Source of the DNA: a virus | Strand: one strand, 5' to 3' | Virus record (IMG/VR): IMGVR_UViG_3300009504_000946 | Location: 2,558 to 66,557 of that record | DNA length: 64,000 nucleotides | Shown: one piece after another, positions 11,219 to 44,192 of the stretch | How the letters are laid out: every line of letters starts with the position of its first letter | How positions within the stretch are numbered: the stretch's first letter is position 1 | The notes under the pieces: generated by a model | The model's database searches: none | What the model was told of the DNA's origin: nothing | The model's input: the letters and a program-made list of their open reading frames with translations, nothing else | Position numbers and translations under genes: made by a program

Positions 11219-11269
11219 ACTTTTTTTGTTATTTATTTGTCGCTTAAACTCTCTAATACTTTTTTAATT

Positions 11270-12037
11270 TTATAAAACTTCAGCTTTAAATGTATCCATG
11301 TCAAGATTCATTCTATATGAAGCCCCACTCTTACCATTTCTGTTTTTTATAACCTTGACTGTAAAATTATTCTTTTTTCTCCAGAACAGCAAGAAATTTA
11401 TCAATTTTTTCCAAAAACTTTCTCTTTCTCTCTGAACACCTATGATATAGTCACTCTGCTCAACCAAAGACCTTGAGTTATTCATAAAATCAATCAAATT
11501 TTTGCTCATAAATTCATCAAGATATTTTTTGGCTTCCTGAGAACTTTGTATTTCAATAGCTGGCATATCAACTTGCTTAATAATAATAGGTGTAATTTTT
11601 TGTGTAAGAGCAAGAATTCTTGCCGTGGAAACCACAAGCTCATCGTCTCCTGGTCTGACCTTATTATTCTTAACGAATTCAATAATGTCAAAAAACACAT
11701 AATTAAGAACACACTCATCCTTAACTTTCTTAATAGTATCTTCAACAAACTTTAACCAATCCATTTCTCCAGGAATTTGATGCGTGTCGATGACTGCAAA
11801 GTTTCCATTTATTTCACCTGGACTCTCCTCATGCTTAAGAGCAGATTGCATAAAGTCATAAATCTTAATAGAATCGTGTGAAAATGAAAAATATAATACA
11901 TTTTCACCCTGCTTCATCAAATCAATCGCTTGAGCAACTGGGAACATTATGCTTTCCTCCATAGGAAGGCATACAACAGTTACAACATCATTATTTTTTA
12001 AGGTCTCAGCTGTGTATAATTTTTTAAAATCATTCAT
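11270..12037 (-). CDS. Degenerate DnaB-C/RecA-fold protein
   Basis: NVLYFSF, SLVEQSDYIIGV, VIKNRNG; no Walker A. Confidence 0.5.
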   Translation of the reverse strand: MNDFKKLYTAETLKNNDVVTVVCLPMEESIMFPVAQAIDLMKQGENVLYFSFSHDSIKIYDFMQSALKHEESPGEINGNFAVIDTHQIPGEMDWLKFVEDTIKKVKDECVLNYVFFDIIEFVKNNKVRPGDDELVVSTARILALTQKITPIIIKQVDMPAIEIQSSQEAKKYLDEFMSKNLIDFMNNSRSLVEQSDYIIGVQRERESFWKKLINFLLFWRKKNNFTVKVIKNRNGKSGASYRMNLDMDTFKAEVL

Positions 12038-12446
12038 TATTATAAGGTTTACAAATTTCTACTACTCTCTTACAAGTTGGAACGTCAAACATTCCAATGT
12101 GTGTATCTTCAATTCTCAATCCAAGCTGTATTGAAAGCCAAATATAAGATTTTTTTCGATAAGTTGTATCTGGCATATATTTGTCAAACACACTCTTTAT
12201 CTTTTTCTCTTTCCAAAGCACATCAAAATATTTATGTGCCTCTTTCTTCCAAAATCTAAGCTCATTATTAGCAAGCCTACCAAGTGGAGTTGTTGTTTCT
12301 GGGTGACATCCAACAAAACTATCGCAAAGAGGGAAGTTCTCACATGCATGTACTGGGCCGAAGTCTCTACCATTGTATATAAAGGCGCTACTCATGTGTA
12401 ATTGCGACTTTCCTTGGCAATATGGACACACTAAAGAATTATTCAT
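12030..12446 (-). CDS. Zinc-finger protein (DUF3268-like)
   Basis: CPYC, VGCHP..PLGRLAN.ELR...AH..FD.LW, THIGMFD. Confidence 0.8.
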   Translation of the reverse strand: MNNSLVCPYCQGKSQLHMSSAFIYNGRDFGPVHACENFPLCDSFVGCHPETTTPLGRLANNELRFWKKEAHKYFDVLWKEKKIKSVFDKYMPDTTYRKKSYIWLSIQLGLRIEDTHIGMFDVPTCKRVVEICKPYNNE

Positions 12447-14170: not shown

Positions 14171-14495
14171 GTTTTTTATCTTTAATGTTATTAAACCATG
14201 AAATTACTTGATTTCTTTGATTGTTATAATCACCATCGCTTAATTCAAATGGAAGGAAACCTTCAATGTTTTTTGTATACTTAAATCTATTTCTAACAAA
14301 CAATGCAGTTTCGGTTATTTTACCAATTGGTATAATTTGATGCCAATTCTCTTCTTCATCACCCAGTACAAATAAAAAAAGAGTATATTTACCAATTTTA
14401 ATATTTTTAACACCAAAGAAATCACTAATATTTTTAGCTTCTTCTTCATTGTTTATATATATGTCTGGATACAATCGTACAGGATATAATTCCAT
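14157..14495 (-). CDS. Hypothetical protein
   Basis: Packed ORF. Confidence 0.55.
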   Translation of the reverse strand: MELYPVRLYPDIYINNEEEAKNISDFFGVKNIKIGKYTLFLFVLGDEEENWHQIIPIGKITETALFVRNRFKYTKNIEGFLPFELSDGDYNNQRNQVISWFNNIKDKKHVGN

Positions 14496-14497
14496 TT

Positions 14498-15259
14498 TTA
14501 TTCTTCTTCTGATTTAAAAATCAATCTTATCATGCTGATGTCATCTCTGTGGATTGTTTTGTACTTTGACTTAAGTACATTCACCTTCTTGGATAACATA
14601 ATTTTATTATTGCACCACGTGTCATCTATCAATAAAAATTCCACTGGGTCAACTTCCACTTCTGGTGTCTTAAAAGTAAGAATTCCATCTGTTGATATGC
14701 TTATGTCTTTTGGGTCAATGAATTTATTTACCTTAACATGCTCATCATACCAGTGGTTGAAATAAGTTCTATCAAGTCCAAGGTCAACCAAGTCATAGGC
14801 GATGTAATCTGGCATATCCTTATATGTTGTTGGATGTGTGAACTTAAACCTATCATTCTCCAATATGATTAAAGTTCCATCGCAATGAATTACTCCATCA
14901 CCAACAGTTAGTGTTAGAGCCTCGCCATGAACCTTATCATATATAAGCATTACAAAAGTAGCAAGCATGTCATTATCTTCCAGGTGAAGAGAAACTTTAA
15001 TTTCGAATAACTTCTTAACAAAATTTTGAACAAAGTTCTTAGCTTTCTCCTCTATTGTATTTCCAGCCATTGCCCCCTCACCTATTATCTGCTTAAATAT
15101 TTTTCCAAATAGTGATGATGCAAAGTGTGAGTCATTTCCTCCGCTGCACCCATCGAATACAACTCCAAGAAAATATCTACCTGAATCTCCAGTGTCTATG
15201 AAATCTTCACAGAAGATTGGGTGGTCTTCACCCTTACGAATAACTGAATGAATTTTCAT
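14498..15259 (-). CDS. PP2C-family protein phosphatase
   Basis: HPIFCED, VFDGCSG, VGDG, STDG, RDDISM. Confidence 0.85.
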   Translation of the reverse strand: MKIHSVIRKGEDHPIFCEDFIDTGDSGRYFLGVVFDGCSGGNDSHFASSLFGKIFKQIIGEGAMAGNTIEEKAKNFVQNFVKKLFEIKVSLHLEDNDMLATFVMLIYDKVHGEALTLTVGDGVIHCDGTLIILENDRFKFTHPTTYKDMPDYIAYDLVDLGLDRTYFNHWYDEHVKVNKFIDPKDISISTDGILTFKTPEVEVDPVEFLLIDDTWCNNKIMLSKKVNVLKSKYKTIHRDDISMIRLIFKSEEE

Positions 15260-15453
15260 CTTAAAACTTCATTTAAAAGATTAATTCCTATAGTTGCCCA
15301 TGTACTTCTTCTTTCTCTAACTGGGATATAATGCGTTGAGTCATTAATTCCAGGAACAAATAATAACATTCCAATTACAGTTAATACAAGAATTATAGAT
15401 GCTACAATCCAAGCAAACAAAAGCCATGCTGCTTTTTCTTTATTTTTATCCAT
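15256..15453 (-). CDS. Small membrane protein
   Basis: Hydrophobic helix WLLFAWIVASIILVLTVIGMLLF. Confidence 0.5.
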   Translation of the reverse strand: MDKNKEKAAWLLFAWIVASIILVLTVIGMLLFVPGINDSTHYIPVRERRSTWATIGINLLNEVLR

Positions 15454-15658
15454 TATATTCAATATTTAATACCCACTGAAGAGTTTCGATTTCTTTCTTA
15501 AGAACTTCATACTCTGATTCTATTTTTAGAAAATCAGCCACATAAACATCTTCTCCACTTTGCTTCTGCTCAATAGAAGAGAAATAGGCTTCCTCAGCCT
15601 GCTCAAACTCTGGAGTAAGCTCTGCAATTTTTTGTAATATTTCTTCTCTATTTTTCAT
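15446..15658 (-). CDS. Hypothetical coiled-coil protein
   Basis: Packed ORF. Confidence 0.55.
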   Translation of the reverse strand: MKNREEILQKIAELTPEFEQAEEAYFSSIEQKQSGEDVYVADFLKIESEYEVLKKEIETLQWVLNIEYNG

Positions 15659-15664
15659 TCTTCT

Positions 15665-15695
15665 AAAAAAAAGGAGGACTACACCGTCCTCCTTT
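15665..15695 (-). terminator. Intrinsic terminator
   Basis: AAAGGAGGAC-loop-GTCCTCCTTT plus T run. Confidence 0.7.
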
Positions 15696-15719
15696 AGATA
15701 TAGTACCTATAAAATTCTC

Positions 15720-16494: not shown

Positions 16495-17337
16495 TTATGC
16501 AGTAATTGGAGTACCTGACGTTACAGAAAGGTTTTCTTTAACTGTAGTTGAAAATCTAACCCCAAGAGCCTTAGCTTCATCATATATTGGTTGAGCAAGC
16601 TCACCAAATGTTGGAGTTGTCCCAGGTCCCATTGGCCCACCAGGAACGTCAGACATTGCATCAGTCAAGATAACAAACTTCTTAGCAAGGTTTGGAGCTT
16701 TTCTAACAACTTGCTTCAAAGTATTCGCAACACAATGTGATTGTGCTTGACCTGCAAGATAAACAACATCATACTTTTCAAGAGTTTGTTGAAGCTCAAG
16801 ATTATACTGAGTCATCGGCATGTTTTTAATTGGAACCTGAGCCTCAAATGCACCGAAGTGTTCAGTATCTGGGTGTGTTCCCTTAGTTACGTAGCGAATT
16901 GAGTGACCCAATCTTGACCAAGTTTGAAGTGCTTGATTGATTTTGTCATCAATAGCATGACCAATTGTTCCAACAAGGCAGTGTTCTGGCCAAATTACGT
17001 GAACATACTCGCCTTCATCTTCAAGAGCTTGAAGATAGTCAAGGGCGTGCTGCGGTTTAACAGCACTCCACTTTCCACTATTTAAGTCAGCAACTGTGAT
17101 TGCCGTAAATGGAGCTGGCCTGTTTCCGTCTTTATCTCTCCAGTATTCTGGATGAGCAATGTCATGGATTTGATGTGAGTCAAGAGTACAAGCAATGTAG
17201 TCAATTGACTTCTTGTTGTTCAAAATCCATTGAGATAATCTTTCGTTATCTTCTTGAGCTCCTGGTACGAATAAAGCGCCAGTTGGGCTGCAGAAGTCGT
17301 TTTGAGCATCAATAATCAAGAGTGCGATTTTTTTCAT
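16495..17337 (-). CDS. Nicotinamidase/isochorismatase-family cysteine hydrolase
   Basis: IIDAQNDFC, LDSH, WPEHC, KG, GQAQSHCV. Confidence 0.85.
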   Translation of the reverse strand: MKKIALLIIDAQNDFCSPTGALFVPGAQEDNERLSQWILNNKKSIDYIACTLDSHQIHDIAHPEYWRDKDGNRPAPFTAITVADLNSGKWSAVKPQHALDYLQALEDEGEYVHVIWPEHCLVGTIGHAIDDKINQALQTWSRLGHSIRYVTKGTHPDTEHFGAFEAQVPIKNMPMTQYNLELQQTLEKYDVVYLAGQAQSHCVANTLKQVVRKAPNLAKKFVILTDAMSDVPGGPMGPGTTPTFGELAQPIYDEAKALGVRFSTTVKENLSVTSGTPITA

Positions 17338-17393: not shown

Positions 17394-18457
17394 TTTTTAT
17401 TCTTCAAATCTCTTAATTGCTCAATTAATTTTTTTTCATCTTCCGAATATTCACCTGGAACTTCAAGAGCCAATTCTACTACATAATCTCCAAAAGCATT
17501 TTCATATCCAGGCCCTGGTTTTATTTGTGGAGGCAAGTTTAAAATTGGCATACCACGACCCTTCATTCTATATGATTTTCCATTTTGAGTTCCTGGCTCA
17601 ACCACAAAGGTAAGAAACTTACCCTCTACTGTTGGCACCTCTATCTTTGTTCCAAGAACAAGGTCTTCATAGCTAATTTTATGTCTATGTAACAAAGAAG
17701 CGCCTCTTCTCTCAAATTTGTCATGCTTTAACTCTTCAATTATAAAGACAACATCTCCACGGTCTGCTCCACTTACCCTTGAGTAATGTCCTTTCCCTTC
17801 TGCGGCTATACTTTGACCATGCTCAACCCCTCGTGGGAAGGTTACGACAGCATTTTCATTTTCTATTTCCACCCCACTCCCATGACAAGTTGTGCAAGAT
17901 TCAATAATCACCCTTCCAGTACCAGAACATTTACTACAAGTAGAAGTTCTTTGCATAAAGTGAGCACCAGCTCTCAGTATTTTAGTTTCCTGTCCACTAC
18001 CACCGCAAGTTGTACACGTATGAAATGCTGTTCCATTTTTGGCTCCATTTCCAGTGCAACTTGAACAGATTTTCTGAACAGCATATGAAACCTCTTTGTC
18101 ACATCCATTATAACACTCCTCAAGAGTTAGAGATATTTTTACGTGAGCGTTTTTTCCTTTTGCAGCCTGTCTGCCAAATTCATTCATAAAATGCTCATAG
18201 TGACTTCCAAATCCACCATAACCTCCAGAAGCAGCCTTATCCCAATCGTGGCCATATTTATTATACAGCTTTCTTTTTTCTGGGTCACTCAACACATCAT
18301 TAGCCTCGTTGATTTCCTTAAACTTTTCTTCAGCCTCTTTATTGTCTGGATTTTTATCAGGATGATATTTCATAGCCATCTTACGATACGCCTTCTTGAT
18401 TTCATCATCAGAAGCCCCACTTTGCAGTCCTAATATTTCGTAATAATCTCTTTTCAT
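17375..18457 (-). CDS. dnaJ: Chaperone DnaJ
   Basis: J domain with HPD, four CxxCxGxG repeats, C-terminal domain. Confidence 0.95.
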
Positions 18458-34730: not shown

Positions 34731-35194
34731 CCTCGATAATTTATATTAAAAAATAAACAATTTTCCCTTGGAACTCTATACATCTGGTCTTTCCCATTTC
34801 TATCGTGAGTATCTATTGTCAAATCTTCAATATAATCATCCAAAAATATTTGTTCGGAATCACAACAGACTGCCCACTCAGTTTCGACACATATTATTAT
34901 GTAATAAAATCCTTGCTTGATGTGAAGTCTTTTTTTCCTACCCAAAAAGCTAACAGTATTAAACTTATAGGTATTTTTATGTGTAAATGGATAATTTATT
35001 TTAACTTCTAATTCAAAGTAATATGTAACCCCGTCTTTTTCAGTTATTATGTCATGCTCATAATTTTCATGAGAACTCAAAACTTTATGACCCCTACTAA
35101 CGATAAAATCTATAAACTTTTGTTTAGCATAACCATCATTGTTGTCATAAGAATTTTGATTAAACTCTCTTGCTTCATATTTAAACTCCGACAT
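34727..35194 (-). CDS. Putative PD-(D/E)xK nuclease-fold protein
   Basis: HDIITEKDGVTYYFELEVK. Confidence 0.55.
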   Translation of the reverse strand: MSEFKYEAREFNQNSYDNNDGYAKQKFIDFIVSRGHKVLSSHENYEHDIITEKDGVTYYFELEVKINYPFTHKNTYKFNTVSFLGRKKRLHIKQGFYYIIICVETEWAVCCDSEQIFLDDYIEDLTIDTHDRNGKDQMYRVPRENCLFFNINYRG

Positions 35195-35340
35195 TATTTG
35201 GCAATGTAAGTTATTTTTACATATTTCTCTTTATTAATTGAGAAAATTCTATTCACTATCATTAATTCTAAGTTTAGAACAAAGATATAAATTTAAAAGC
35301 AAGTAACCAAGTAATAGAATTAAATATTTCAAAGTACATA

Positions 35341-35368
35341 AAAAAAGTACCCTACTTTAGAGGATACA
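35341..35368 (-). terminator. Probable terminator closing the tRNA-Gln array
   Basis: Imperfect hairpin GTATCCT..AGGGTAC followed by T6. Confidence 0.45.
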
Positions 35369-35373
35369 TTTTG

Positions 35374-35446
35374 TTGCCCACCCAGGGCTCGAACCTGGAC
35401 TCTTCTGTGTCAAAAACAGACGTGTTGCCAATTACACCAGCGGGCA
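35374..35446 (-). tRNA. tRNA-Gln(TTG)
   Basis: Cloverleaf; anticodon arm TCTGT-TTTTGAC-ACAGA; U1-A72; no encoded CCA. Confidence 0.92.
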
Positions 35447-35453
35447 ATATTTG

Positions 35454-35537
35454 TTGTGCAGGTAGGATTCGAACCTACAAAGGATTTCTCCATACTTGAT
35501 TCAAAGTCAAGACGCTTGCCAGTTTGCATACTGCACA
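35454..35537 (-). tRNA. Atypical tRNA-Gln(TTG) with long variable arm
   Basis: CTTGA-CTTTGAA-TCAAG; V arm TATGGAGAAATCCTTT; T arm GTAGG-TTCGAAT-CCTAC. Confidence 0.8.
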
Positions 35538-35590
35538 ATATTTGTTTCCCATATCTATTGCTTTACCTCACTTATGGGGAGTGAATTTTG

Positions 35591-35663
35591 TTGCCCACCC
35601 AGGGCTCGAACCTGGACTCTTCTGTGTCAAAAACAGACGTGTTGCCAATTACACCAGCGGACA
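35591..35663 (-). tRNA. tRNA-Gln(TTG)
   Basis: Cloverleaf; near-identical to 35374-35446. Confidence 0.92.
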
Positions 35664-35716
35664 ATATTTATTTCCCATATCTATTGCTTTACTTCACTTA
35701 TGGGGAGTGAATTTTG

Positions 35717-35789
35717 TTGCCCACCCAGGGCTCGAACCTGGACTCTTCTGTGTCAAAAACAGACGTGTTGCCAATTACACCAGCGGACA
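35717..35789 (-). tRNA. tRNA-Gln(TTG)
   Basis: Identical to 35591-35663. Confidence 0.92.
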
Positions 35790-35796
35790 ATATATC

Positions 35797-36051
35797 TTAA
35801 TTCATTTTTTCTTTCCAAACTTCTTTTATCTCCTCATCTGAAACTCCAACCTCAGACATTCTACTATGCATCATCATTAATTCAACACATAGACAAACAT
35901 CGAGTCCCAACTCAAACCTCTCCACGGCTTTGTCAAAATATTTATCAAATATTATGGGACCACCCCTTTCTAAAAGAGTTAGTGTATATCCCTCTTCACA
36001 TTCTGAACAAAGTACTTTTTTACCTTTTATTATTATTTCTTTAATTTCCAT
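35797..36051 (-). CDS. Hypothetical protein between the attenuator and the tRNA-Gln array
   Basis: 84-aa ATG ORF with CSEC motif. Confidence 0.55.
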   Translation of the reverse strand: MEIKEIIIKGKKVLCSECEEGYTLTLLERGGPIIFDKYFDKAVERFELGLDVCLCVELMMMHSRMSEVGVSDEEIKEVWKEKMN

Positions 36052-36069
36052 TTTCTAAATTTTTGACAT

Positions 36070-36099
36070 AAAAAAAGCCTGAACTAATCAGTCCAGGCT
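36070..36099 (-). terminator. Attenuator terminator (Gln leader)
   Basis: AGCCTGGACT-GATT-AGTTCAGGCT followed by T run. Confidence 0.85.
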
Positions 36100-36128
36100 C
36101 TCAAATATTTTGTTTTTTAACAAATAGT

Positions 36129-36206
36129 TCAGGCAACACCAGGACCGTCCTCTCTCGAAGATTGCTGCTGTTGTTGCTGAGCTGATATGTTAATTACGTT
36201 TTTCAT
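36129..36206 (-). CDS. Poly-Gln attenuator leader peptide, 25 aa
   Basis: MKNVINISAQQQQQQSSREDGPGVA*; contains antiterminator GTCCTGGT complementary to the terminator 5' arm. Confidence 0.8.
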   Translation of the reverse strand: MKNVINISAQQQQQQSSREDGPGVA

Positions 36207-36291
36207 TTCTCTAATAAATAGTTTTATTTTTAATAAACTTGTTTTTGCAACAATAAACCTTGTTAGTTTATTGTGTACTTTTTACTTGTTG

Positions 36292-36373
36292 TGACCGAAG
36301 CGAGACTCGAACTCGCACGCCCTGCGGCAACGGCTTCTTAGACCGCCTTGGCTACCAATTACAACACTCGGCC
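36292..36373 (-). tRNA. tRNA-Leu(AAG)
   Basis: GCGGT-CTAAGAA-GCCGT; long V arm; A73. Confidence 0.85.
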
Positions 36374-36385
36374 ATTTTTATCTTA

Positions 36386-36421
36386 TACGCAAATTTAGTT
36401 CTTTTGTTTCAAATAATCAAA
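36386..36421 (-). promoter_or_regulatory. Overlapping ECF-type and Bacteroidota housekeeping promoters
   Basis: TGAAAC-N16-CGTA (36386-36411) and TTTG-N20-TAAATTTG (36390-36421). Confidence 0.7.
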
Positions 36422-36656
36422 CTTTTTTTGCAAAAACTTTCTTTATTTTTTCTGATATTAATTCAATAGGGTTTATCTTAAGCAATACAAAAGAAAGTAA
36501 AAAGAATAGGGATGCCAATACATAAAATATATATGTTGTAATCCAATAGTCCCCTGACAATTTCATCACGAGAGCAAATAGTTCTGCATACCCGAATGGG
36601 TTCAGAAATGTTGCTATCATTAAGCAAAGAATCCCTATGTTCTTTCTGTTTCTCAT
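36417..36656 (-). CDS. Small membrane protein
   Basis: Two hydrophobic helices; start probably MRNRKN. Confidence 0.55.
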   Translation of the reverse strand: MRNRKNIGILCLMIATFLNPFGYAELFALVMKLSGDYWITTYIFYVLASLFFLLSFVLLKINPIELISEKIKKVFAKKV

Positions 36657-36763
36657 AATCCCCTGTACTGTCTGATTCCATTTAATCAATTTTTGTTTAA
36701 CAATAGAATATTGCATATTGCGATATGCAATATTCCTCTTTTTTATAAATAGAAAGATAAACT

Positions 36764-37498
36764 TTATCTTTCAATATTTTTACATAATTCATTCCACCTT
36801 AAAATGGACATCCTCACATAATCTCTCCCATCTAAGCCATAAGTTCCTACGCCATATCCATCATTTACTTCTATGAGCATTGTTTCACATTTGTCTGTAA
36901 CTCCAAAGTCAATTGCATATGCAATCGGCTGTGAAGTATAATTTTTTATCGTGTCATTTATAAAGTTAAAGTCTGGAATTACCTCATGATTCCCGCTATA
37001 CTTTCTACAGTCAATCACTTTTCCTTCTGCAACAAAAACTCTATATTCAGACACAAAATTAACAACAGATGAAGTCATTATATTAAACTCATCTCCTTGC
37101 ACAGTCAAAGTAGATATATAATCCAACTCATCCTTATCTGGAATGACAAGCCCAGTAAACAACTTCAACGTTGTCGGCTTAACAAATAAAGGAAAATTTC
37201 CATTATCCTTAAAGTGTCTTACCGTACCTATTTCTATATCCCTCATTGTATACTTATACAATTCTTTTGGAATGTCAATAGGCTCTGGAACAATTACTCC
37301 AAGACTACTTAATGCATGTCTTATTGGAGTAACTCCTCCGAATACAATTGTATTCTTTGTAATATCTAAGCTGTCAATTTCATCGTAATCAAATTTTTCA
37401 GTCTTTATTCTCAAGTGCTCACAACCCAGAAAAGCTACATAAGTTGCCTCAGTTGCAAATTCACCTTTAAATGTTTGAAGATATGCTTTTTCTATCAT
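36764..37498 (-). CDS. ATP-grasp domain protein (DUF4343/R2K-like)
   Basis: FVKP..KLFTG, SEYRVFV, AIDFG, IEVND. Confidence 0.8.
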   Translation of the reverse strand: MIEKAYLQTFKGEFATEATYVAFLGCEHLRIKTEKFDYDEIDSLDITKNTIVFGGVTPIRHALSSLGVIVPEPIDIPKELYKYTMRDIEIGTVRHFKDNGNFPLFVKPTTLKLFTGLVIPDKDELDYISTLTVQGDEFNIMTSSVVNFVSEYRVFVAEGKVIDCRKYSGNHEVIPDFNFINDTIKNYTSQPIAYAIDFGVTDKCETMLIEVNDGYGVGTYGLDGRDYVRMSILRWNELCKNIER

Positions 37499-37544
37499 GC
37501 TAAATTATAAGCATTTTTTTGCATAAATTCAAACACCTAAAAAA

Positions 37545-38306
37545 TTACATATCTTCGAGTGCCATAATTAACTTTTGCATGTCAGCATCGTAAAATCCAG
37601 CACAAGAAGTGCTTCCACACTCAACTATCTTCCATCCATTATCAGTAAGACAAACATCAATTACAAATGTATCAGCAAGTTGATATATGTCCACCATATC
37701 CTGAGCAAAATCTAAAGCATCTTGGTCAACTATGTTATCATAAACCAAGAAACTACCACGCCTATAAGTACTCTGTGTTACTATTTTTCCTTTTACAACC
37801 CAACATCTAACTTCTTGCGTAATTCTCTTTGGAACCGCTACTTGAATCTTAGAATCAAACCTTAGCGTTGTATCCTCTTGATGTGAAAGCATTCTATCTT
37901 TAAATTTATCCCATTCAGTTTTTTCATATACCTTGCCAGTAAAAGATTTTGAATCAAGGCATGGTCTTATAAAATGCTGGTCGCACTTCCAATCAAAGTC
38001 ATCTCCAAAATCAATAACCCTTGAGTCATAATTTAAAAGATTATCCTTATAATATTTTGAATACACGTTGTAATCGTGATTTTCAGTTATTAATGCACCT
38101 GGAGTCCAAGAATATTTTTTTGACAATCTCGCCAACTTAAGAGAACCAAAAACAAATACATCTTTCCTATCTGTCTTAAATTCGACTTCTTCTACAAAAG
38201 GGAAAACTGTAACCAATTCATGACTTATGTCAAACTTATTAAGACAGTTCATTAACTTAGCATGACCTTCTTCTCTAAATAAATTTTCTTGTACAATATA
38301 ATGCAT
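37545..38306 (-). CDS. ATP-grasp domain protein (DUF4343/R2K-like)
   Basis: FIRP..DSKSFTG, EVRCWVV, VIDVC, KIVE; start MHYIVQ (the track extension overlaps a tRNA). Confidence 0.8.
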   Translation of the reverse strand: MHYIVQENLFREEGHAKLMNCLNKFDISHELVTVFPFVEEVEFKTDRKDVFVFGSLKLARLSKKYSWTPGALITENHDYNVYSKYYKDNLLNYDSRVIDFGDDFDWKCDQHFIRPCLDSKSFTGKVYEKTEWDKFKDRMLSHQEDTTLRFDSKIQVAVPKRITQEVRCWVVKGKIVTQSTYRRGSFLVYDNIVDQDALDFAQDMVDIYQLADTFVIDVCLTDNGWKIVECGSTSCAGFYDADMQKLIMALEDM

Positions 38307-38322
38307 AATCTTTAATTTTTTG

Positions 38323-38405
38323 TAGCCCAGGCGAGAATCGAACTCGCACTCCACAAGGGAACAGAATTTTAAGTCCTGCGTGTCTACCAGTTTCACCACT
38401 GGGCC
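38323..38405 (-). tRNA. tRNA-Leu(TAA), long V arm
   Basis: CAGGA-CTTAAAA-TTCTG. Confidence 0.9.
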
Positions 38406-38479
38406 ATTTTTTAATATGAGTGTTCATTATCCCAATCTATTCACGTAATGTGAACACTCCAAAATAATGAACAATCTTG

Positions 38480-38560
38480 TACCGATGGAGAGAGTCGAAC
38501 TCTCACGCCTTTAGGCACTGGGTTTTGAATCCAGCGTGTCTACCATTCCACCACATCGGC
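38480..38560 (-). tRNA. tRNA-Leu(CAA), long V arm
   Basis: CTGGA-TTCAAAA-CCCAG. Confidence 0.9.
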
Positions 38561-38574
38561 ATATGCTGAGGCTT

Positions 38575-39126
38575 TCACTCAGCTGCTTTATATTTTCTAA
38601 AAGTCAAACTTACTCTCGGACCACAATCTCTATCATGCTTTGGAATCCTGTGTAAGTGTGTGTCTTGGAATCCTGGAGGCATGTAAAACAATGAGCCATT
38701 TTCTAACTTCCTTTTATTCTCATCTGGGACCATACCCTTTTCCCCTTTTTCTTTCCACCATATTTCTCTCTCTGCCCCAAATGACACAACTGCAATTCCA
38801 TCATTGTGGTCAATTGAGTGAGAATCATCAGCGTGCCATCCTAATCCATTTCTTGAGCTAACATACATGTTTAAGAAGCAAATATCCAAGCTTGTTCCTA
38901 ACTTCTCATTCACCTTATCCATTATAGACTTAACTATAGGAATCATTGGAGTTGACTTATAGGTAGGAGCTCCGCTGTGGTCTAAGTAAGAATATTCAAT
39001 GTCAGAGTTTGCCATAAAGCACTCTCTTCTCATCTTTGTCTCATCAACCCAACTTACTTCCTTCACTAATGTGTCAATAAAGTCTTCGTCAATTAACTTG
39101 TCTATGTAAACTAAATTTTTCATCAT
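38575..39126 (-). CDS. AlkB-like 2OG-Fe(II) dioxygenase
   Basis: LNMY, GWHADD, VSFGAER, HRIPK, RVSLTFR. Confidence 0.9.
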   Translation of the reverse strand: MMKNLVYIDKLIDEDFIDTLVKEVSWVDETKMRRECFMANSDIEYSYLDHSGAPTYKSTPMIPIVKSIMDKVNEKLGTSLDICFLNMYVSSRNGLGWHADDSHSIDHNDGIAVVSFGAEREIWWKEKGEKGMVPDENKRKLENGSLFYMPPGFQDTHLHRIPKHDRDCGPRVSLTFRKYKAAE

Positions 39127-39137
39127 TTTTATTTTTG

Positions 39138-39211
39138 TGACCCCTATGGAATTCGAATCCATACTATACGCTGTTTAAGAACGTTGCCTCTGCCTATTGG
39201 GCTAAGGGGCC
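39138..39211 (-). tRNA. tRNA with Leu(TAA) anticodon and short V loop
   Basis: ACGTT-CTTAAAC-AGCGT; 5-nt variable loop ATAGT. Confidence 0.85.
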
Positions 39212-39219
39212 AAATCTTG

Positions 39220-39317
39220 TGTGTTGAGCAGGATTCGAACCTACAATAAGGAGATACTGCGCAATATCTTTATCCTCACGACTAAATCGCATGTCTAACC
39301 TCTTTCATCATCAACAC
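39220..39317 (-). ncRNA. Atypical tRNA-like RNA (Leu-type D loop, shrunken anticodon loop, very long V arm)
   Basis: 7-bp acceptor GTGTTGA/TCAACAC, T arm GTAGG-TTCGAAT-CCTGC, arm GCGA-TTTAG-TCGT. Confidence 0.65.
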
Positions 39318-39318
39318 A

Positions 39319-39395
39319 TGGTACACCTGGAGGGAGTCGAACCCCCAACCTCACGAGTCGTAATCGTGTGCTCTATCCAGTTGAGCTACAGGTGC
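39319..39395 (-). tRNA. tRNA-Arg(ACG), CCA encoded
   Basis: CACGA-TTACGAC-TCGTG. Confidence 0.93.
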
Positions 39396-39405
39396 ATATT
39401 TCCGA

Positions 39406-39729
39406 TTACTCGGAAACTTTTATAAATTCACCAGACTTAATTGCCTTTCCAATCCATCTGTTAAGCTCAGAACCTCTCATCTCCGCTGAGAAAGTTGTTG
39501 TCCCAAGGTCTGCAGACAATGTTGTAACTACATCTGGTTCCTTAACTTCTGCACCAACTTCTAAAGTTGATACATGATGTGTAACTTCAACGTCAATAGT
39601 CGAAATAGGAAATTGATAAACTCCACCTTCCAACTTTACAGTGTAATATAAATTACCACTCACATAGTGACTAAGCTTAGCCATCTCTTTGCTTTTAAAA
39701 AGCTCTTTTTTTACTTCTAACTCGTTCAT
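39406..39729 (-). CDS. Hypothetical protein
   Basis: ORF between tRNAs. Confidence 0.6.
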   Translation of the reverse strand: MNELEVKKELFKSKEMAKLSHYVSGNLYYTVKLEGGVYQFPISTIDVEVTHHVSTLEVGAEVKEPDVVTTLSADLGTTTFSAEMRGSELNRWIGKAIKSGEFIKVSE

Positions 39730-39745
39730 TTCTTATAAAGTTATG

Positions 39746-39818
39746 TAGGACTTACAGGGCTTGAACCTGCGACCTCTTGCATGTCATACAAGCGCTCTAC
39801 CAACTGAGCTAAAGTCCT
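39746..39818 (-). tRNA. tRNA-Val(GAC)
   Basis: CTTGT-ATGACAT-GCAAG; 5' end overlaps the leuS stop. Confidence 0.9.
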
Positions 39819-41098
39819 GTATTAAAATTTGGAGCAAAACACCTTACTATTTCTGTAAGTGCAGCAGCTGTGCTCCCTGTCAACTGCTTATTCTTATTTT
39901 TATTGTAGAATTCCATCAAAGTGCTTATTACCTTATTAAACTTGAAGGATTCTACATATCCATCAATAGTATATTGCAAATCAATTATATCTTTAGCGGT
40001 TACACCCTCACTTACACCCTCACTTACACCCTCAATCCATCTATTCCATTTACCTAAAGCCCTTCTTATTCCACTAATCTTTGAGTCATCCCAATCTCCG
40101 CCTTCGAAGTAGTGTCCAATGAACATCAAGTACATTCTCAACTCATCTGGGTCGTAGTCATCTGGGTTTACAACATTCCCAATTGACTTTGACATCTTGA
40201 CCCCATCTTTGGTAATCATTCCCTGGTGAATCAATTTCTTGAATGGTTCCTCACATGTAACAATTCCTTGGTCATACAAGAACATATTAATAAATCTTGC
40301 ATAAATCAAGTGCATGCATGCATGTTCATTTCCACCAACATACAAGTCCACTTGTTTGTATTCATCCTTAGGCAAAAACTCACTATCACTATCTGTCAAA
40401 TATCTCAAGTAGTAAAATGAGCTATCAACAAATGTATCCAAAGTATCAGTTTCTCCATCTACAGGAATTGGACATCCCCAACTCCTCTGTCTTGATACAC
40501 ACCAATCATTCAAATTCTCAAGCCAGTGTCTCTGTTGCTTCTTTGTCTTCTCTGGGTAGTCAATCCAATCCAAGTTTTTAATCAACCTGTCTTTATAATC
40601 TGTAATTTTAAAGAACCACTGATTCAACTCTCTTACCTCAACTTGCGACTTACATCTATCACACTTCTCCTCTTTTACCTGCTCATTTGCCAATACAGTT
40701 TCACAACTTGGGCAGTAATTTACTGGAGCAACTTTCTTATAAGCCAATCCAGCATCTTTCAACTTCAAGAACAACCACTGTGTCCATTTTTGATAGCTTG
40801 GGTCAGATGTAACCAATTTCTCTTCAAATTGAGTATTCATATTCTGCATCTGCCACCTAAATCTCTCAATGTTCTTATAGGTTATTCTCCTTGGGTCTCC
40901 ACCTTCTTTCTTGGCCTGGTTTTCTGCAGGCAATCCGAATGAGTCATATCCAAAAGGTTGGAACACGCTTATTCCTTTAAAATTTTTCCATCTGCAGTAA
41001 GAATCAATTACCGCATAATTGTAAGCATGTCCAACATGCAAACCATCACCTGAAGGATATGGAAACATTGTCAAGCAGTAAAAATCTTCCTCTTTCAT
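39809..41098 (-). CDS. leuS: Minimal leucyl-tRNA synthetase (no CP1 editing domain, no C-terminal domain), 429 aa
   Basis: MFPYPSGDGLHVGH, DSFGLPAEN, DWCVSRQRSWG, DTLDTFVDSS, GGNEHACMHLIYARF, KMSKSIGN; start MKEEDF. Confidence 0.92.
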   Translation of the reverse strand: MKEEDFYCLTMFPYPSGDGLHVGHAYNYAVIDSYCRWKNFKGISVFQPFGYDSFGLPAENQAKKEGGDPRRITYKNIERFRWQMQNMNTQFEEKLVTSDPSYQKWTQWLFLKLKDAGLAYKKVAPVNYCPSCETVLANEQVKEEKCDRCKSQVEVRELNQWFFKITDYKDRLIKNLDWIDYPEKTKKQQRHWLENLNDWCVSRQRSWGCPIPVDGETDTLDTFVDSSFYYLRYLTDSDSEFLPKDEYKQVDLYVGGNEHACMHLIYARFINMFLYDQGIVTCEEPFKKLIHQGMITKDGVKMSKSIGNVVNPDDYDPDELRMYLMFIGHYFEGGDWDDSKISGIRRALGKWNRWIEGVSEGVSEGVTAKDIIDLQYTIDGYVESFKFNKVISTLMEFYNKNKNKQLTGSTAAALTEIVRCFAPNFNTGL

Positions 41099-41108
41099 AA
41101 TCTTTTTT

Positions 41109-41251
41109 TTGCGCTTGCGCCAGTGAGCAAAGCGAGTTGTAGGACAGGAGGGACTCGAACCCCCGACATCTTGCATGTAAAACAAGCGCTCTACCAGCTG
41201 AGCTACTATCCTATTTTTATGCGCTTGCGCCAGTGAGCGAAGCGAGTTGTA
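41109..41251. repeat. ~32-bp direct repeat forming the 3' trailers of two tRNAs
   Basis: TGCGCTTGCGCCAGTGAGCRAAGCGAGTTGTA at ~41110 and ~41220. Confidence 0.8.
41140..41212 (-). tRNA. tRNA-Val(TAC)
   Basis: CTTGT-TTTACAT-GCAAG. Confidence 0.9.
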
Positions 41252-41323
41252 CCCTCTGTCAGATTCGAACTGACACTGTATGGCTTCTAAGGCCATCGCC
41301 TCTACCAATTGGGCTAAGAGGGC
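41250..41323 (-). tRNA. tRNA with Leu(TAG) anticodon and short V loop
   Basis: ATGGC-CTTAGAA-GCCAT; 5-nt variable loop ACAGT. Confidence 0.85.
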
Positions 41324-41376
41324 ATTTCTATTGTTGGCCAAATGTGGTATTTAACTTCTACATTTGGCCACTTTTG

Positions 41377-41451
41377 TACTCCCTGTTGGACTCGAACCAA
41401 CGACCCTTGCCTTGTAAGGGCAATGCTCTGAACCAACTGAGCTAAGGAAGC
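41377..41451 (-). tRNA. tRNA-Val(TAC)
   Basis: TTGCC-CTTACAA-GGCAA. Confidence 0.93.
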
Positions 41452-41478
41452 ATTCTAAATTTATAATTTCGTCTTCAG

Positions 41479-41564
41479 CTTGCCAAGCAGGACTTGAACC
41501 TGCACGCCCTATTACGGGCAGCCCTTCTTACAGAGCCCATGTCTACCAATTCCATCATTGGCTC
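41479..41564 (-). tRNA. Degenerate Leu-type tRNA (anticodon ambiguous, TAA or AAG)
   Basis: Leu-type D loop and V arm, intact T arm; only 5-bp acceptor; irregular loop TGTAAGAA. Confidence 0.5.
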
Positions 41565-41620
41565 GCCTTAGACCAGAACTTCATAGAGTTTGCAACCTCT
41601 TATTCATTCTGACAATTGTG

Positions 41621-41693
41621 TGGTGATGGAGGGAATTGAACCCCCGACACATGGATTTTCAGTCCATTGCTCTACCAACTGAGCTACATCACC
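41621..41693 (-). tRNA. tRNA-Phe(GAA)
   Basis: ATGGA-CTGAAAA-TCCAT. Confidence 0.93.
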
Positions 41694-41753
41694 ATAAATT
41701 CCGAAAGACTGGTAAGACCTGCAAGCTCGGAAAAACACCTGCAGGTGTCTATG

Positions 41754-41830
41754 TGGTACGGACGAGAGTCGAACTCGTGACCTCTGGGGTTTCAAGCCAG
41801 CGCTCTACCAAAAAACTGAGCTACCATACC
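41754..41830 (-). tRNA. tRNA-Phe(GAA), variant
   Basis: Loop TTGAAAC; C31:C39 mismatch; U-rich expanded D loop. Confidence 0.8.
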
Positions 41831-41832
41831 AT

Positions 41833-41972
41833 AAAATTTAGGGGAAAGTTTGAGAGAGTGTAAACCCCTGAAGGGGCTCGACAGGACTTGAACCTGTAAC
41901 AGTTTGTGTTTAAGACAAATGCGCTACCAATTGCGCAACGAAGTAACTCTTACTCATCACCACCTAAATTTT
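41833..41972 (-). ncRNA. Y-RNA-like RNA carrying a tRNA (TAA anticodon) D/anticodon/T module
   Basis: Outer stem AAATTTAGG/CCTAAATTT, internal loop TGGTGA/AACTTTCC, inner stem, TACTTCG, then tRNA arms with a broken acceptor. Confidence 0.55.
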
Positions 41973-41976
41973 TTTG

Positions 41977-42112
41977 TGGAGGGGGCTGGACTCGAACCAG
42001 CGACACGGTGCTTTCAATGCAAACGAAGTATCTCACATTCTCACCACTAACAAAAGGGAAAACGAAGTAAGGTTTTTTTTCTAACCTGCTCTACCAACTG
42101 AGCTACCCCTCC
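41977..42112 (-). ncRNA. Phe-like tRNA with a ~60-nt Y-RNA-like insertion in the anticodon arm
   Basis: Perfect acceptor GGAGGGG/CCCCTCC, D and T arms; insert carries the TTTTCC, TGGTGA and TACTTCG motifs. Confidence 0.6.
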
Positions 42113-42176
42113 AAAAATTTATTCTTAATATGTCAAATTTTCCTTTCGGAATTCCCTGGACGCTTCCAGTGGAAAC

Positions 42177-42206
42177 AAAAAAAGCCCGAACAGTAGTTCG
42201 GGCTTT
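42177..42206 (-). terminator. Attenuator terminator (Leu/Val/Phe leader)
   Basis: AAAGCCCGAAC-TACT-GTTCGGGCTTT plus T run. Confidence 0.88.
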
Positions 42207-42232
42207 CAAATATCTTTTATATGATTATAACA

Positions 42233-42334
42233 TCAACTTAAAGACATATTACGTCCGAACTCTTGTCTACTAAAGACAAATAGTAATTGCACTTGCAATA
42301 AGAGTTGACGTGATATGTTGTTAATGTTTTTCAT
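42233..42334 (-). CDS. Multi-codon attenuator leader peptide, 33 aa
   Basis: MKNINNISRQLLLQVQLLFVFSRQEFGRNMSLS*; AGTTCGG is complementary to the terminator 5' arm CCGAACT. Confidence 0.8.
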   Translation of the reverse strand: MKNINNISRQLLLQVQLLFVFSRQEFGRNMSLS

Positions 42335-42380
42335 TGTTATCTTTAAATATACAGAAAATTTATTTTTCCATTTTTAATTA

Positions 42381-42415
42381 TACGCAAATTTATAAATTAT
42401 GTTTCAATAATCCAA
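42381..42415 (-). promoter_or_regulatory. Overlapping ECF-type and Bacteroidota housekeeping promoters
   Basis: TGAAAC-N16-CGTA (42381-42406) and TTG-N20-TAAATTTG. Confidence 0.7.
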
Positions 42416-42495
42416 GGCTTTTTTTAATTATTTTTAATAATAATTTTTAAATAACTGATAATCAAATATTTATAATTAAAAATAATTTGAAAAAT

Positions 42496-42526
42496 AAAAA
42501 ACCTGAAGACTTTCTCCAGGTTTTTT
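42496..42526 (-). terminator. Intrinsic terminator
   Basis: AAAAAACCTGGAGA-loop-TCTTCAGGTTTTTT. Confidence 0.7.
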
Positions 42527-42530
42527 ATTT

Positions 42531-43292
42531 TTAGAACCACCACTTTCCATAGTGCTTGTGTCGATATTTGAACTCATGCTGGTCATCGCACCAATCATAA
42601 ATCCAACAACCCCAATCATCAGTAATGTCATCATACTTAGCAAAGGTAGCTCTCATATTTTTGCGAAGCGCATTCTTATTATAAGCTCTATCCCTTCTGT
42701 TTAAGCATTGTCTCCACCACTTTGAAGAACTGTGTCTTTCCCAGTACTTTCCTCTAACATCATAGAAGGTTGTCTCAAGTTGAGCATTAATTTCCGCTTC
42801 TTCTCTCAACAATTCTTCATCAATGACCTTGTAATGAGTCTTGTAGCTCTTTACAATCTTTCTCACAAGAAAGTGAGATGGGATGTTAACGGCATATACT
42901 GTGTATGATGCTCCCCCCCAGCGACTCTGCTTTTGATAAGAATAAAAAAACTTCTGAGCCCACGCACTAAGATTATCATATCGCTTTTGGTCAATTTCTC
43001 TTAGCCCTGGGTTAACATCAACCATTTTTTTACAAGAACGGTCCCATTCTTTGAAATTCTTATCCTTACACCAAACAGTTGTACCAAAGTTATCAAGAAT
43101 TTGCTGAAACTTATCAGCATCTTCTCTCCTTGCCACATCGTCTCTAAGGACCCAGTAGGAATCATACCCATGGTGGATTGGTTTTTCGAGAGGCTTGTAT
43201 CCGAGTTTCCTCTGTGCCTCCCAGTTAGCATCATGCTCTCTCATCTTACTGAGAAATGCCTTGTGCTTTTCTGCTTTCGCATTCCTTTTCAT
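42531..43292 (-). CDS. Basic hypothetical protein
   Basis: 253-aa K/R/W-rich ORF (WVLRDDVAR). Confidence 0.7.
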   Translation of the reverse strand: MKRNAKAEKHKAFLSKMREHDANWEAQRKLGYKPLEKPIHHGYDSYWVLRDDVARREDADKFQQILDNFGTTVWCKDKNFKEWDRSCKKMVDVNPGLREIDQKRYDNLSAWAQKFFYSYQKQSRWGGASYTVYAVNIPSHFLVRKIVKSYKTHYKVIDEELLREEAEINAQLETTFYDVRGKYWERHSSSKWWRQCLNRRDRAYNKNALRKNMRATFAKYDDITDDWGCWIYDWCDDQHEFKYRHKHYGKWWF

Positions 43293-43368
43293 GTTCTGTG
43301 TTTTTCTAAGTTAATACTTAGTACACAGAACCTTTTCTTGGAATTTGATATTTGATTTGATTCGTCAC
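43293..43368 (-). promoter_or_regulatory. uORF (43318-43368) ending inside a hairpin that abuts the downstream ATG
   Basis: GTG-start 16-codon ORF MTNQIKYQIPRKGSVY*; hairpin GTTCTGTGT-A-CTAAGT-ATTA-ACTTAG-AAAA-ACACAGAAC-ATG. Confidence 0.6.
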
Positions 43369-43379
43369 TTAACTATATA

Positions 43380-43405
43380 TACGTAAAAAAACAGAAAATG
43401 TTACT
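43380..43405 (-). promoter_or_regulatory. ECF-sigma-type promoter (variant)
   Basis: AGTAAC-N16-CGTATA. Confidence 0.65.
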
Positions 43406-43597
43406 TTATTCCAGATAAATATTATACTGACTTATCATTTTTTCATTAAGAGAGTATCCTTTCATGAGCCAAAAGTCAAATTCAAATTCTGTCTTAGATT
43501 CCGAAAGTCTAACCACAATTAAGTCCGCATAATACTGAGCCCACTTATGAATTATCATAAGCTTCCAAGCTTTGTATTTATTATAGTAATTTTTCAT
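43406..43597 (-). CDS. Hypothetical protein
   Basis: Packed ORF. Confidence 0.5.
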   Translation of the reverse strand: MKNYYNKYKAWKLMIIHKWAQYYADLIVVRLSESKTEFEFDFWLMKGYSLNEKMISQYNIYLE

Positions 43598-44192
43598 ATT
43601 TTTTTCTTAATTTATTTTCAATTTTTTTTGCTACATATGCACAGAACTCAGCTTGAAGGTCAATTGGAATATAATCTTCATAGTCTTTTTTTAAAAAATA
43701 TCCAAATTTTTTAAAATGACTATTTTTAAGTTCTCTATATGTTTTATGTGGCCTATTCATATGCCACTCATCCCCACTCTCTGGTAAAACAGTATCATAA
43801 AAATATACTATGGCAGACTCTTTTTTTTCTTTGATAGACATCCAAAGAACTGAATTAAATTCTTTTTTAATCATACCAAATATTTCTGGAACATGCTCAT
43901 GAGCATCTTCAAATCCTGAGATTATTCTTCTGATAATTGGAAAAATCACAATACCAAACTCATTGTCTTCATGAGTAATTTCTCCTGTCATTTTATACTG
44001 CATGTCACACATCTTTTCTTCAGACAAAAGGATGAGCGCTGCTATTTCAAAGCCAACAGCAACTTTTACAGCAACACCTGAATCAAGACCCTCAAGAAAC
44101 CCTAAGTTCATGTATCTAATTAAAATATGGTCTAAAGAATTTTTATCTCTATCTGAGATACCAATTAAACCGCTCCTAAAAAGTTCTGACAT
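43581..44192 (-). CDS. Hypothetical protein with T4 gp23-like capsid fragments
   Basis: LGFLEGL, FPIIRRI, IDLQAEFCAY. Confidence 0.55.
   Translation of the reverse strand: MSELFRSGLIGISDRDKNSLDHILIRYMNLGFLEGLDSGVAVKVAVGFEIAALILLSEEKMCDMQYKMTGEITHEDNEFGIVIFPIIRRIISGFEDAHEHVPEIFGMIKKEFNSVLWMSIKEKKESAIVYFYDTVLPESGDEWHMNRPHKTYRELKNSHFKKFGYFLKKDYEDYIPIDLQAEFCAYVAKKIENKLRKKYEKLL

Follow-up and report, generated by a model that had tools for sequence, protein, structure and literature searches.

What decides when a phage transcribes the transfer RNA (tRNA) genes that it carries? The question is raised by a 64,000-nucleotide (nt) stretch of viral DNA (IMG/VR record IMGVR_UViG_3300009504_000946, positions 2,558 to 66,557), here called the window, which makes up most of a 66.6-kb viral contig and has a G+C content of 35%. 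On its minus strand, which carries every feature relevant here, a promoter-like motif is followed by a short open reading frame (ORF), leader ORF 1 (42334-42233), then by an intrinsic terminator (42207-42175), and then by a tRNA array that includes a gene for leucyl-tRNA synthetase (LeuRS). An earlier note on this DNA had interpreted the ORF as a multi-codon leader that indexes the tRNA genes behind it. Our analysis confirmed that the feature is real and conserved. Based on its sequence, we consider it probable that the feature is an attenuator in which ribosome stalling at codons matched to the array gates a phage tRNA and LeuRS operon, and that a second attenuator, specific for Gln, is nested downstream.

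Codon run, terminator and alternative RNA folds

Leader ORF 1 extends from ATG to TGA, comprises 33 codons plus the stop codon and reads MKNINNISRQLLLQVQLLFVFSRQEFGRNMSLS. The 13-codon stretch that had been singled out in it is exact, since CGT CAA CTC TTA TTG CAA GTG CAA TTA CTA TTT GTC TTT corresponds to codons 9-21 (R Q L L L Q V Q L L F V F; 42310-42272). These 13 consecutive codons specify solely Arg, Gln, Leu, Val and Phe, and the longest run of the same set {F,L,R,V,Q} in a background of 16,846 codons is 6. When we compared the best 12-codon window of the leader with the array amino acids Phe, Leu, Arg and Val, 9 of the 12 codons matched, a value reached by 2 of 15,296 background segments, which were all 32-codon segments from window ORFs of at least 150 amino acids. 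Leader ORF 1 is thereby enriched in the cognate codons of the tRNAs encoded by the operon, which is one of the features that define the attenuator class.

All seven distinct clear anticodons in 38323-41830 (GAA, TAC, TAG, GAC, ACG, TAA and CAA) have a codon in this stretch that they can read, as had been claimed, and the coverage becomes 8 of 8 once tRNA-Leu(AAG) at 36373 is counted. The stretch also contains three Gln codons, for which 38323-41830 offers no tRNA, and tRNA-Gln genes are found further downstream (35789-35373). The leader favours codons that are rare in the phage genes: CTC and CTA account for 53 and 108 of 1,275 Leu codons, GTC for 72 of 1,034 Val codons and CGT for 44 of 686 Arg codons, each of the four representing 4-8% of the codons of its own amino acid. 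It had also been proposed that the leader senses individual isoacceptors rather than amino acids. Matching at the amino-acid level is borne out, and at the codon level the data are only suggestive: the 8 of 8 anticodons covered by leader 1 compare with 6.09 on average when synonymous codons are reshuffled (P=0.065), and ten leaders summed cover 56 of 60 anticodons compared with 52.8 ± 1.9 (P=0.08).

Terminator 1, formed by regions 3 and 4 and a T tract (42207-42175), has a stem of 12 pairs (42207-42180), six of them G-C, a 4-nt loop (TACT) and seven T residues, and it is the strongest intrinsic terminator within 35000-44000. It separates leader ORF 1 from the first tRNA-like gene, which starts at 42112, an arrangement that is likewise a defining feature of attenuators. 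Region 2 (AGTTCGGA; 42261-42254) has two alternative partners, namely region 1 (CGUCAACUCUU; 42310-42300) at the 5' end of the codon run, which is paired in the untranslated fold, and the 5' arm of the terminator, with which it would form an antiterminator. AGTTCGG (42261-42255) is an exact complement of CCGAACT (42201-42195), as previously noted, and the latter consists of six bases of the 5' arm and the first base of the loop. The calculated energy of this duplex is -8.8 kcal/mol, compared with -4.4 ± 1.3 kcal/mol for 500 dinucleotide-shuffled leaders (p=0.012). Leader 1 thus contains a candidate antiterminator of the kind found in the attenuator class, in which the 5' arm of the terminator pairs with a segment that closely follows the regulatory codons. 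The suggestion that AATAT/ATATT extends this antiterminator needs to be modified: an 8-bp helix (AUGUCUUU/AAAGAUAU) is indeed drawn in the constrained folds, but it is nested inside the 2:3 pairing and is not a contiguous extension of it.

The free leader 1 RNA is predicted to be highly structured (-51.1 kcal/mol compared with -26.2 ± 3.6 kcal/mol, z=-6.9), and none of 200 shuffles was equally stable. The untranslated fold contains a 1:2 helix between AAGAGUU..CGGACG and the first part of the codon run (CGUCAACUCUU), and because of this pairing region 2 is hidden and the terminator stands. When a ribosome was masked on the codon run and the RNA was cut before the 3' arm, region 2 paired with the 5' arm around the nested helix. 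When the ribosome was masked at the stop codon of leader 1, the 1:2 helix re-formed and the 5' arm was free. In these models, the layout of leader 1 is the 1:2 / 2:3 / 3:4 logic of the trp leader.

One DNA sequencing run contains 0.97 of the words of the stretch and may represent the source sample. When four DNA runs were aligned at a likeness of 80%, a contig in X2 (about 92% identity) was found to span 41938-42450, and among the differences listed (26 of 37) a single one falls in the leader ORF, the synonymous change CGT->CGC at 42308. One synonymous change in a 101-nt leader ORF hints at constraint on the leader; this comparison is incomplete and we do not rely on it.

Leaders and arrays within the window and in related phages

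The window contains a paralogue of leader 1. A second unit begins at another copy of the promoter-like motif (36411-36384), which is directly followed by tRNA-Leu(AAG) (36373-36291) and then by leader ORF 2 (36206-36129). Leader 2 reads MKNVINISAQQQQQQSSREDGPGVA, has the same N-terminus as leader 1 and includes six Gln codons; six Gln within 24 codons is equalled by none of 15,696 background segments. Behind it lie terminator 2 with its T tract (36102-36067; 13 pairs, stem 36102-36073), an ORF of 84 amino acids and four tRNA-Gln(TTG) genes (35789-35373), and this sub-array is closed by a terminator at 35367-35347. One of the four, at 35453-35537, is 85 nt long and apparently has a long variable arm, which is unusual for tRNA-Gln. 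An orthologue of leader 2 is present in L029, one of the relatives described below.

Relatives were reached via LeuRS, and longer stretches of four viral records were added. Thirty of 80 metagenome loci (L028-L056 and L067) were analysed, and the other 50 were set aside because their match was limited to the first 170-320 residues (cellular-type LeuRS or fragments). One scan looked for a small ORF followed by a terminator and same-strand tRNAs; a second, which did not require a terminator, took every small ORF located upstream of tRNAs and ordered these ORFs by how well they matched the amino-acid set of the tRNAs downstream. The leaders were at the top of both rankings of the second scan (492 and 246 small ORFs). 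In total we found 21 leader/array pairs, two in the window, four each in G001 and G002, one in G003, one in L028, two in L029, one each in L033, L038 and L067, two in L039 and two in LR745206.1, so that 19 of the 21 lie outside the window. The comparison of leader codons with array content in relatives, which had been proposed as a check, was thus answered by 19 further pairs in which composition follows the array.

Leader composition varies with array content across these relatives. Leaders of the Cys/Leu/Val class (runs SLLVILLCSLVV and ILVLCLLSSVVLL) precede a terminator and tRNAs for Cys, Val and Leu, and those of the Phe/Asp/Glu/Ala class (FDFAFTAAEED and FEFNFAAFAEEDD) precede tRNAs for Phe, Glu and Asp (Ala, His, Gln). 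The class Ser/Trp/Asn/His/Ile/Met/Arg is represented by the run INIHMISISNWRRNSHR and the class Gln/Lys/Pro/Gly/Tyr/Thr by the runs TTYQTQKQQPKGGKPYG and TTTYKGKQYPQGTKP, each with tRNAs for the same amino acids behind the terminator. The same holds for the Leu/Asn/Pro class (LNLVLNPVNLLGLNPNQLP, with tRNAs for Leu, Pro and Asn), for the Asp/Pro/Gln class (QPQLQVVIDQDQPD, Asp/Pro/Gln) and for the Ser/Phe/Leu class (LSSVLFSLSYSSLSS, Ser/Phe/Leu), the last from the GC-rich record G003, where a putative ribosome-binding site, GGAG, is located 8 nt before the ATG. The run SLSISHIPSTSLSLPRSLRHTT stands before tRNAs for Ser, Thr, His, Pro, Arg and Leu, and the run QQQQQQQ before tRNA-Gln. G001 and G002 have four leaders and four arrays apiece. 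When each leader was compared with every array of its own genome, seven of the eight leaders had their longest run with the cognate array, and only G2c did better elsewhere, with a run of 3 against its own array and of 4 against the G2d array. Background tests of ten leaders from the window, G001 and G002 yielded 0 to 158 matches per 10,558-15,696 segments. The design is also found in a public but unannotated 635-kb record of an uncultured phage (LR745206.1, L108), where two leader/terminator cassettes (16873-16968, Pro/Gln/Asp; 17808-17858, Gln) stand before matching tRNA genes. In four relatives the first tRNA begins 8-30 nt past the terminator, which leaves no room for a separate promoter, and these arrays would therefore be reachable solely by readthrough.

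The two closest relatives, L028 and L029, whose LeuRS is 79% identical, carry the leader 1 orthologues MKRIINISRLQLVQLLFVFSRQEFGRDMSLS and MKNFNNILRQLQLLQVVLFVFRGKEFGRDMSLVS. In one of them tRNA-Gln is located inside the array, and in the other it is located behind a second Gln leader, like in the window, which explains the Gln codons of leader 1. In the W1/L028/L029 alignment, in-frame indels of 6, 3 and 3 nt occur only in the codon run, region 2 does not vary at all, the terminator stem is conserved and the loops vary freely; in the L028 terminator, one G-C pair is lost on both arms. Orthologous leaders can have unrelated terminator stems, for example AGACCCAGCTTAAT compared with AAAGCCTCAGTGA, and the upstream partner changes along with them. 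The best complement of the 5' arm lies at nt 47-92 of the ORF, just past the codon run, in 18 of the 19 leaders tested, the exception being G003, where it spans nt 18-60. This complement reaches p<0.1 in 13 of the 19 leaders, and the combined Fisher p value is 8e-9 for all 19 and 0.0017 when each orthologue class gives one median value. In folds with a stalled ribosome, in which the codon run was masked and the 3' arm had not yet been made, the 5' arm paired with the upstream segment in all 19.

Among the 30 analysed loci, 13 contain any tRNA and 8 contain at least four, and leaders were found in six of these eight. The two leaderless loci, L030 and L045, are short contigs whose arrays begin less than 900 nt from the contig end. 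Two small ORFs before terminators in L024 showed no clear match to the array. A degenerate DNA search of viral contigs with the leader N-terminus pattern gave one match, which falls within a long ORF, has no tRNA genes around it and was discarded as chance. Based on these observations, the view that a multi-codon leader indexes its array is upheld by a codon run beyond chance, an antiterminator, a paralogue and relatives of the same design, but the index is imperfect, and the tRNA-Gln genes lie behind a second attenuator.

Promoter-like motif, array genes and neighbours

The motif TGAAAC-N16-CGTATA matches exactly at 42406-42379, about 45 nt before leader ORF 1. Between 9744 and 56479 the window contains seven exact copies and three with one mismatch, and each of these ten lies on the minus (coding) strand. 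At up to two mismatches there are 15 matches, compared with 4.45 ± 2.08 expected, and none of 100 shuffles attained 15. The motif is kept in the orthologues L028 and L029, and it looks like a phage-specific class of promoter. The sole further match between 42379 and 36411 lies within a tRNA gene (38368-38395, two mismatches). The leaders in G001 and G002 are preceded instead by TAnnTTTG-like boxes, which we take to be candidate Bacteroidota -7 boxes. Upstream of leader 1 is an ORF of 253 amino acids (43292-42531) with its own terminator (42532-42490), and our search found no relatives of this ORF.

The putatively gated array (42112-38322) contains tRNA-Phe(GAA), two tRNA-Val(TAC), tRNA-Leu(TAG), tRNA-Val(GAC), tRNA-Arg(ACG), two tRNA-Leu(TAA) and tRNA-Leu(CAA) together with tRNA-like genes. 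Interspersed among them are the LeuRS gene (41098-39812), identified from its translation of 429 amino acids, and two other ORFs, one of them AlkB-like. The genes behind terminator 1 are thus mainly tRNA genes with one LeuRS gene, and in this respect the locus departs from the attenuator class, which is defined by amino-acid biosynthesis or aminoacyl-tRNA synthetase genes. Cellular LeuRS is much longer than this protein. Many large phage contigs encode full-length relatives (54-79% identity), and cellular-type matches cover just the first ~190-250 residues. A PHROG scan of the neighbouring ORFs revealed no function relevant to the switch.

Several elements in and around the array, all on the minus strand, are unusual. 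The first gene past the attenuator (41977-42112) is tRNA-like (Rfam tRNA, 45.4 bits), has an insertion of ~60 nt in the anticodon-arm region and received no ARAGORN call; this stretch is 72% identical to Bacteroides crAss-like phages. The element at 41878-41941 is a truncated tRNA-like sequence (Rfam 49.3 bits, model positions 5-66); its anticodon loop reads TAA by eye, and a normal acceptor stem is missing. The tRNA at 41754-41830 was also missed by ARAGORN, and the Rfam alignment gives it the anticodon GAA (Phe); its anticodon stem has a C-C mismatch at the base, and its D-loop carries a 5-nt insertion. Between tRNA-Arg and tRNA-Leu, a 98-nt sequence (39220-39317) is a weak tRNA match whose 29.1 bits equal the gathering score. 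Elsewhere in the window, an ORF with its start at 28643 resembles, by eye only, the N-terminus of a Glu/Gln-tRNA synthetase. Some relatives carry tRNAs with the anticodon CTA (ARAGORN 'Pyl', amber-suppressor-like), and one carries a tRNA with TTA ('Stop') (L015 at 8804, L019 at 3335 and 3414, L036 at 4654 and L025 at 2628). The CTA and TTA tRNAs are hints of stop-codon recoding in these relative phages. The Phe/Glu/Asp leader of G002 terminates in TAG.

Mechanism, alternatives and relation to known attenuators

From these sequence features, with indirect support from the in-frame indels and from the GGAG before the G003 leader, we infer leader translation and stall-dependent readthrough, as follows. 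Transcription would start at TGAAAC-N16-CGTATA, and the 33-codon leader would be translated while it is being made. When charged tRNAs for Arg, Gln, Leu, Val and Phe are ample, the ribosome would pass region 2 and reach the stop codon, the terminator would form and transcription would end at 42175-42180. Slow decoding of any codon of the run would stall the ribosome on region 1, and the free region 2 (AGUUCGG) would pair with the 5' arm. The resulting antitermination would allow RNA polymerase to enter the tRNA-Leu, -Val, -Phe and -Arg genes and the LeuRS gene, whose products would relieve the stall and thus provide negative feedback on tRNA supply. Further downstream, the paralogous Gln attenuator would gate the tRNA-Gln sub-array. 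What depletes the tRNAs in nature may be the codon demand of the phage or a tRNA-cleaving defence of the host.

Several results weigh against this mechanism and need to be considered here. The terminator wins in every equilibrium fold that contains the 3' arm, so that any readthrough must be kinetic. An anti-antiterminator (1:2) over the regulatory codons is seen in leader 1 and partly in leader 2 and L029 and is absent from the folds of most relatives; this element of leader 1 appears to be lineage-specific and not conserved. The untranslated nascent RNA of most relatives already forms the antiterminator, so that a ribosome reaching the stop region would be the sole switch there. With a mask at the stop codon, the 5' arm is clearly free in 7 of the 10 leaders modelled first and in a smaller number of the 9 modelled next, the latter because the program draws the outer helix around the masked ribosome. 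The duplex test fails in G1b (p=0.94), L038 (p=0.89) and G003 (p=0.67). Under synonymous reshuffling, the codon-level (isoacceptor) match above the amino-acid level is not significant. In G004, with 40 tRNA genes in arrays mixed by amino acid, neither scan found a convincing leader. RNA sequencing runs that match the region contain only 0.04-0.07 of its words. Finally, a weak palindromic terminator, a short hairpin with TTTTT (41750-41733), follows the second tRNA-Phe of the array; it is possibly a weak internal terminator that limits the extent of readthrough, or a processing site.

Part of this evidence would suit a different kind of translation-coupled control, in which stalling uncouples the ribosome from RNA polymerase and thereby reduces transcription downstream (Rho-type polarity), or the cassette mainly sets the processing or stability of the tRNA precursor. 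The equilibrium preference for the terminator, the unconserved 1:2 element and the ribosome-at-stop models that do not always free the 5' arm speak for it. Such control, however, gives no role to the conserved and covarying complement of the 5' arm that most leaders have immediately 3' of the codon run, and the stalled-ribosome folds yield the antiterminator in 19 of 19; we regard it as unlikely. It may also be asked whether the ORF is accidental, a short reading frame beside a terminator that belongs to the gene upstream. AT-rich DNA commonly contains short ORFs, and 88 ORFs of at least 40 amino acids are present in 14 kb here. However, the upstream gene owns the terminator at 42532-42490, the promoter-like motif lies in between, the background counts are 2 of 15,296 and 0 of 15,696, and a paralogue and 19 pairs in relatives share the design. 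The background tests and the small-ORF rankings effectively refute chance, to which we assign a negligible probability.

Could the leaders instead encode small functional peptides, membrane-active or regulatory, with the terminators as plain operon boundaries and the likeness to the arrays as a by-product? Several leaders are hydrophobic (W1, G1a and G2a) and their N-termini are similar (MKN..NIS, MRN..NDI), as in a peptide family. Nevertheless, their chemistry shifts from hydrophobic (Leu/Val/Cys) to acidic (Phe/Asp/Glu/Ala), to poly-Gln and to Gln/Lys/Pro/Gly/Tyr/Thr exactly with the downstream tRNAs, and a comparison of orthologues shows the weakest conservation in the central run and the strongest in the RNA elements, which makes a peptide function very unlikely. 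Direct sensing of tRNA by the RNA, without translation, is the principle of T-box riboswitches, which control aminoacyl-tRNA synthetase and related genes by a choice between terminator and antiterminator that depends on tRNA charging, with the tRNA bound directly at a specifier codon. The phage element makes the same choice in our models, its presumed targets are tRNA and aminoacyl-tRNA synthetase genes as in T-box regulons, and Rfam gives a sub-threshold match to a leader family at the terminator. In contrast, no T-box match was obtained at the gathering threshold in the whole window or at E<=1 in 38200-42400, a T-box reads one specifier codon and not a run of 6-17 codons, and the in-frame indels favour translation, and we consider T-box-like sensing highly improbable. 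The Rfam match just mentioned is to RF00512 (Leucine operon leader) at 42254-42178, from just 3' of region 2 through the terminator, with 35.5 bits and E=8.8e-5 against a gathering score of 50. We rejected membership in this family, since the score is below 50 bits and most of the 148-position model is skipped.

A ribosome-stalling attenuator, the reading that we prefer, has well-known counterparts. Leader-peptide attenuation is the textbook link in bacteria between amino-acid synthesis and the supply of charged tRNA, and multivalent leaders are known from the enterobacterial operons ilvGMEDA (Ile/Leu/Val) and thr (Thr/Ile). Like these, the phage elements combine a short leader, a codon run for several amino acids, an intrinsic terminator and an antiterminator that excludes the terminator and has its 5' strand directly after the run, and leader 1 additionally has a predicted 1:2 helix over the regulatory codons. 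In contrast to ilv and thr, tRNA genes and a synthetase gene, and not biosynthetic enzymes, stand behind the terminator, and therefore the output would be the decoding molecule itself. Moreover, the combinations of amino acids follow the content of the tRNA array and not a metabolic pathway, and the element is phage-borne with several copies per genome. In Escherichia coli, leader-peptide control of the aminoacyl-tRNA synthetase operon pheST responds to one amino acid and acts on protein genes. The proposed phage system resembles pheST as an attenuation of the translation apparatus, with LeuRS in the array and a Leu-rich leader 1, and differs from it in that up to seven amino acids would be sensed and the regulated genes are mostly tRNAs.

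Inducible control of a tRNA array has been described for the L-array (trn operon) of Anabaena sp. PCC 7120, a supernumerary array that is normally silent and is induced upon impaired translation (PMC8421152). Control there is via direct repeats over the -10 box and the start site, with a presumed repressor, and the main text of that article does not contain 'attenuat', 'leader' or 'terminator' (PMC8421152). A survey of huge phages reports tRNAs and synthetases, and its main text likewise lacks these three terms (PMC7162821). Our full-text literature searches found no account of leader-peptide control of tRNA genes, and the Anabaena array was the one published inducible tRNA array that they returned. 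Most likely, then, what is new here is the application of a known leader-peptide mechanism to another class of genes, the tRNA genes, with ilv, thr and pheST as the closest precedents.

Why phages carry tRNAs, whether for codon compensation or for replacing tRNAs destroyed by host defences, is the subject of PMC10264068 and PMC11464382. As a tentative extension, which we consider possible rather than probable, huge phages may possess a modular, on-demand tRNA supply, in which each block would be an autonomous feedback loop and its leader an OR-gate over the codons of the block, tuned in part to rare codons or isoacceptors. Loops could be nested, as with the Gln codons of leader 1 followed by the Gln attenuator. 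The trigger might be loss of host tRNA during infection through anticodon-nuclease defences, host shut-off or phage codon demand, and the leaders would then serve as sentinels, turning on replacement tRNAs and a cognate synthetase solely for those tRNA species that are being attacked. If the attenuator reading is true, small ORF, terminator and an array sorted by amino acid would provide an annotation signature for tRNA operons of huge phages, and the leaders would represent compact, composable sensors of decoding capacity for single amino acids. Phage tRNA genes would then be regulated by demand and not simply added to the pool, which would bear on the question of why phages carry tRNAs.

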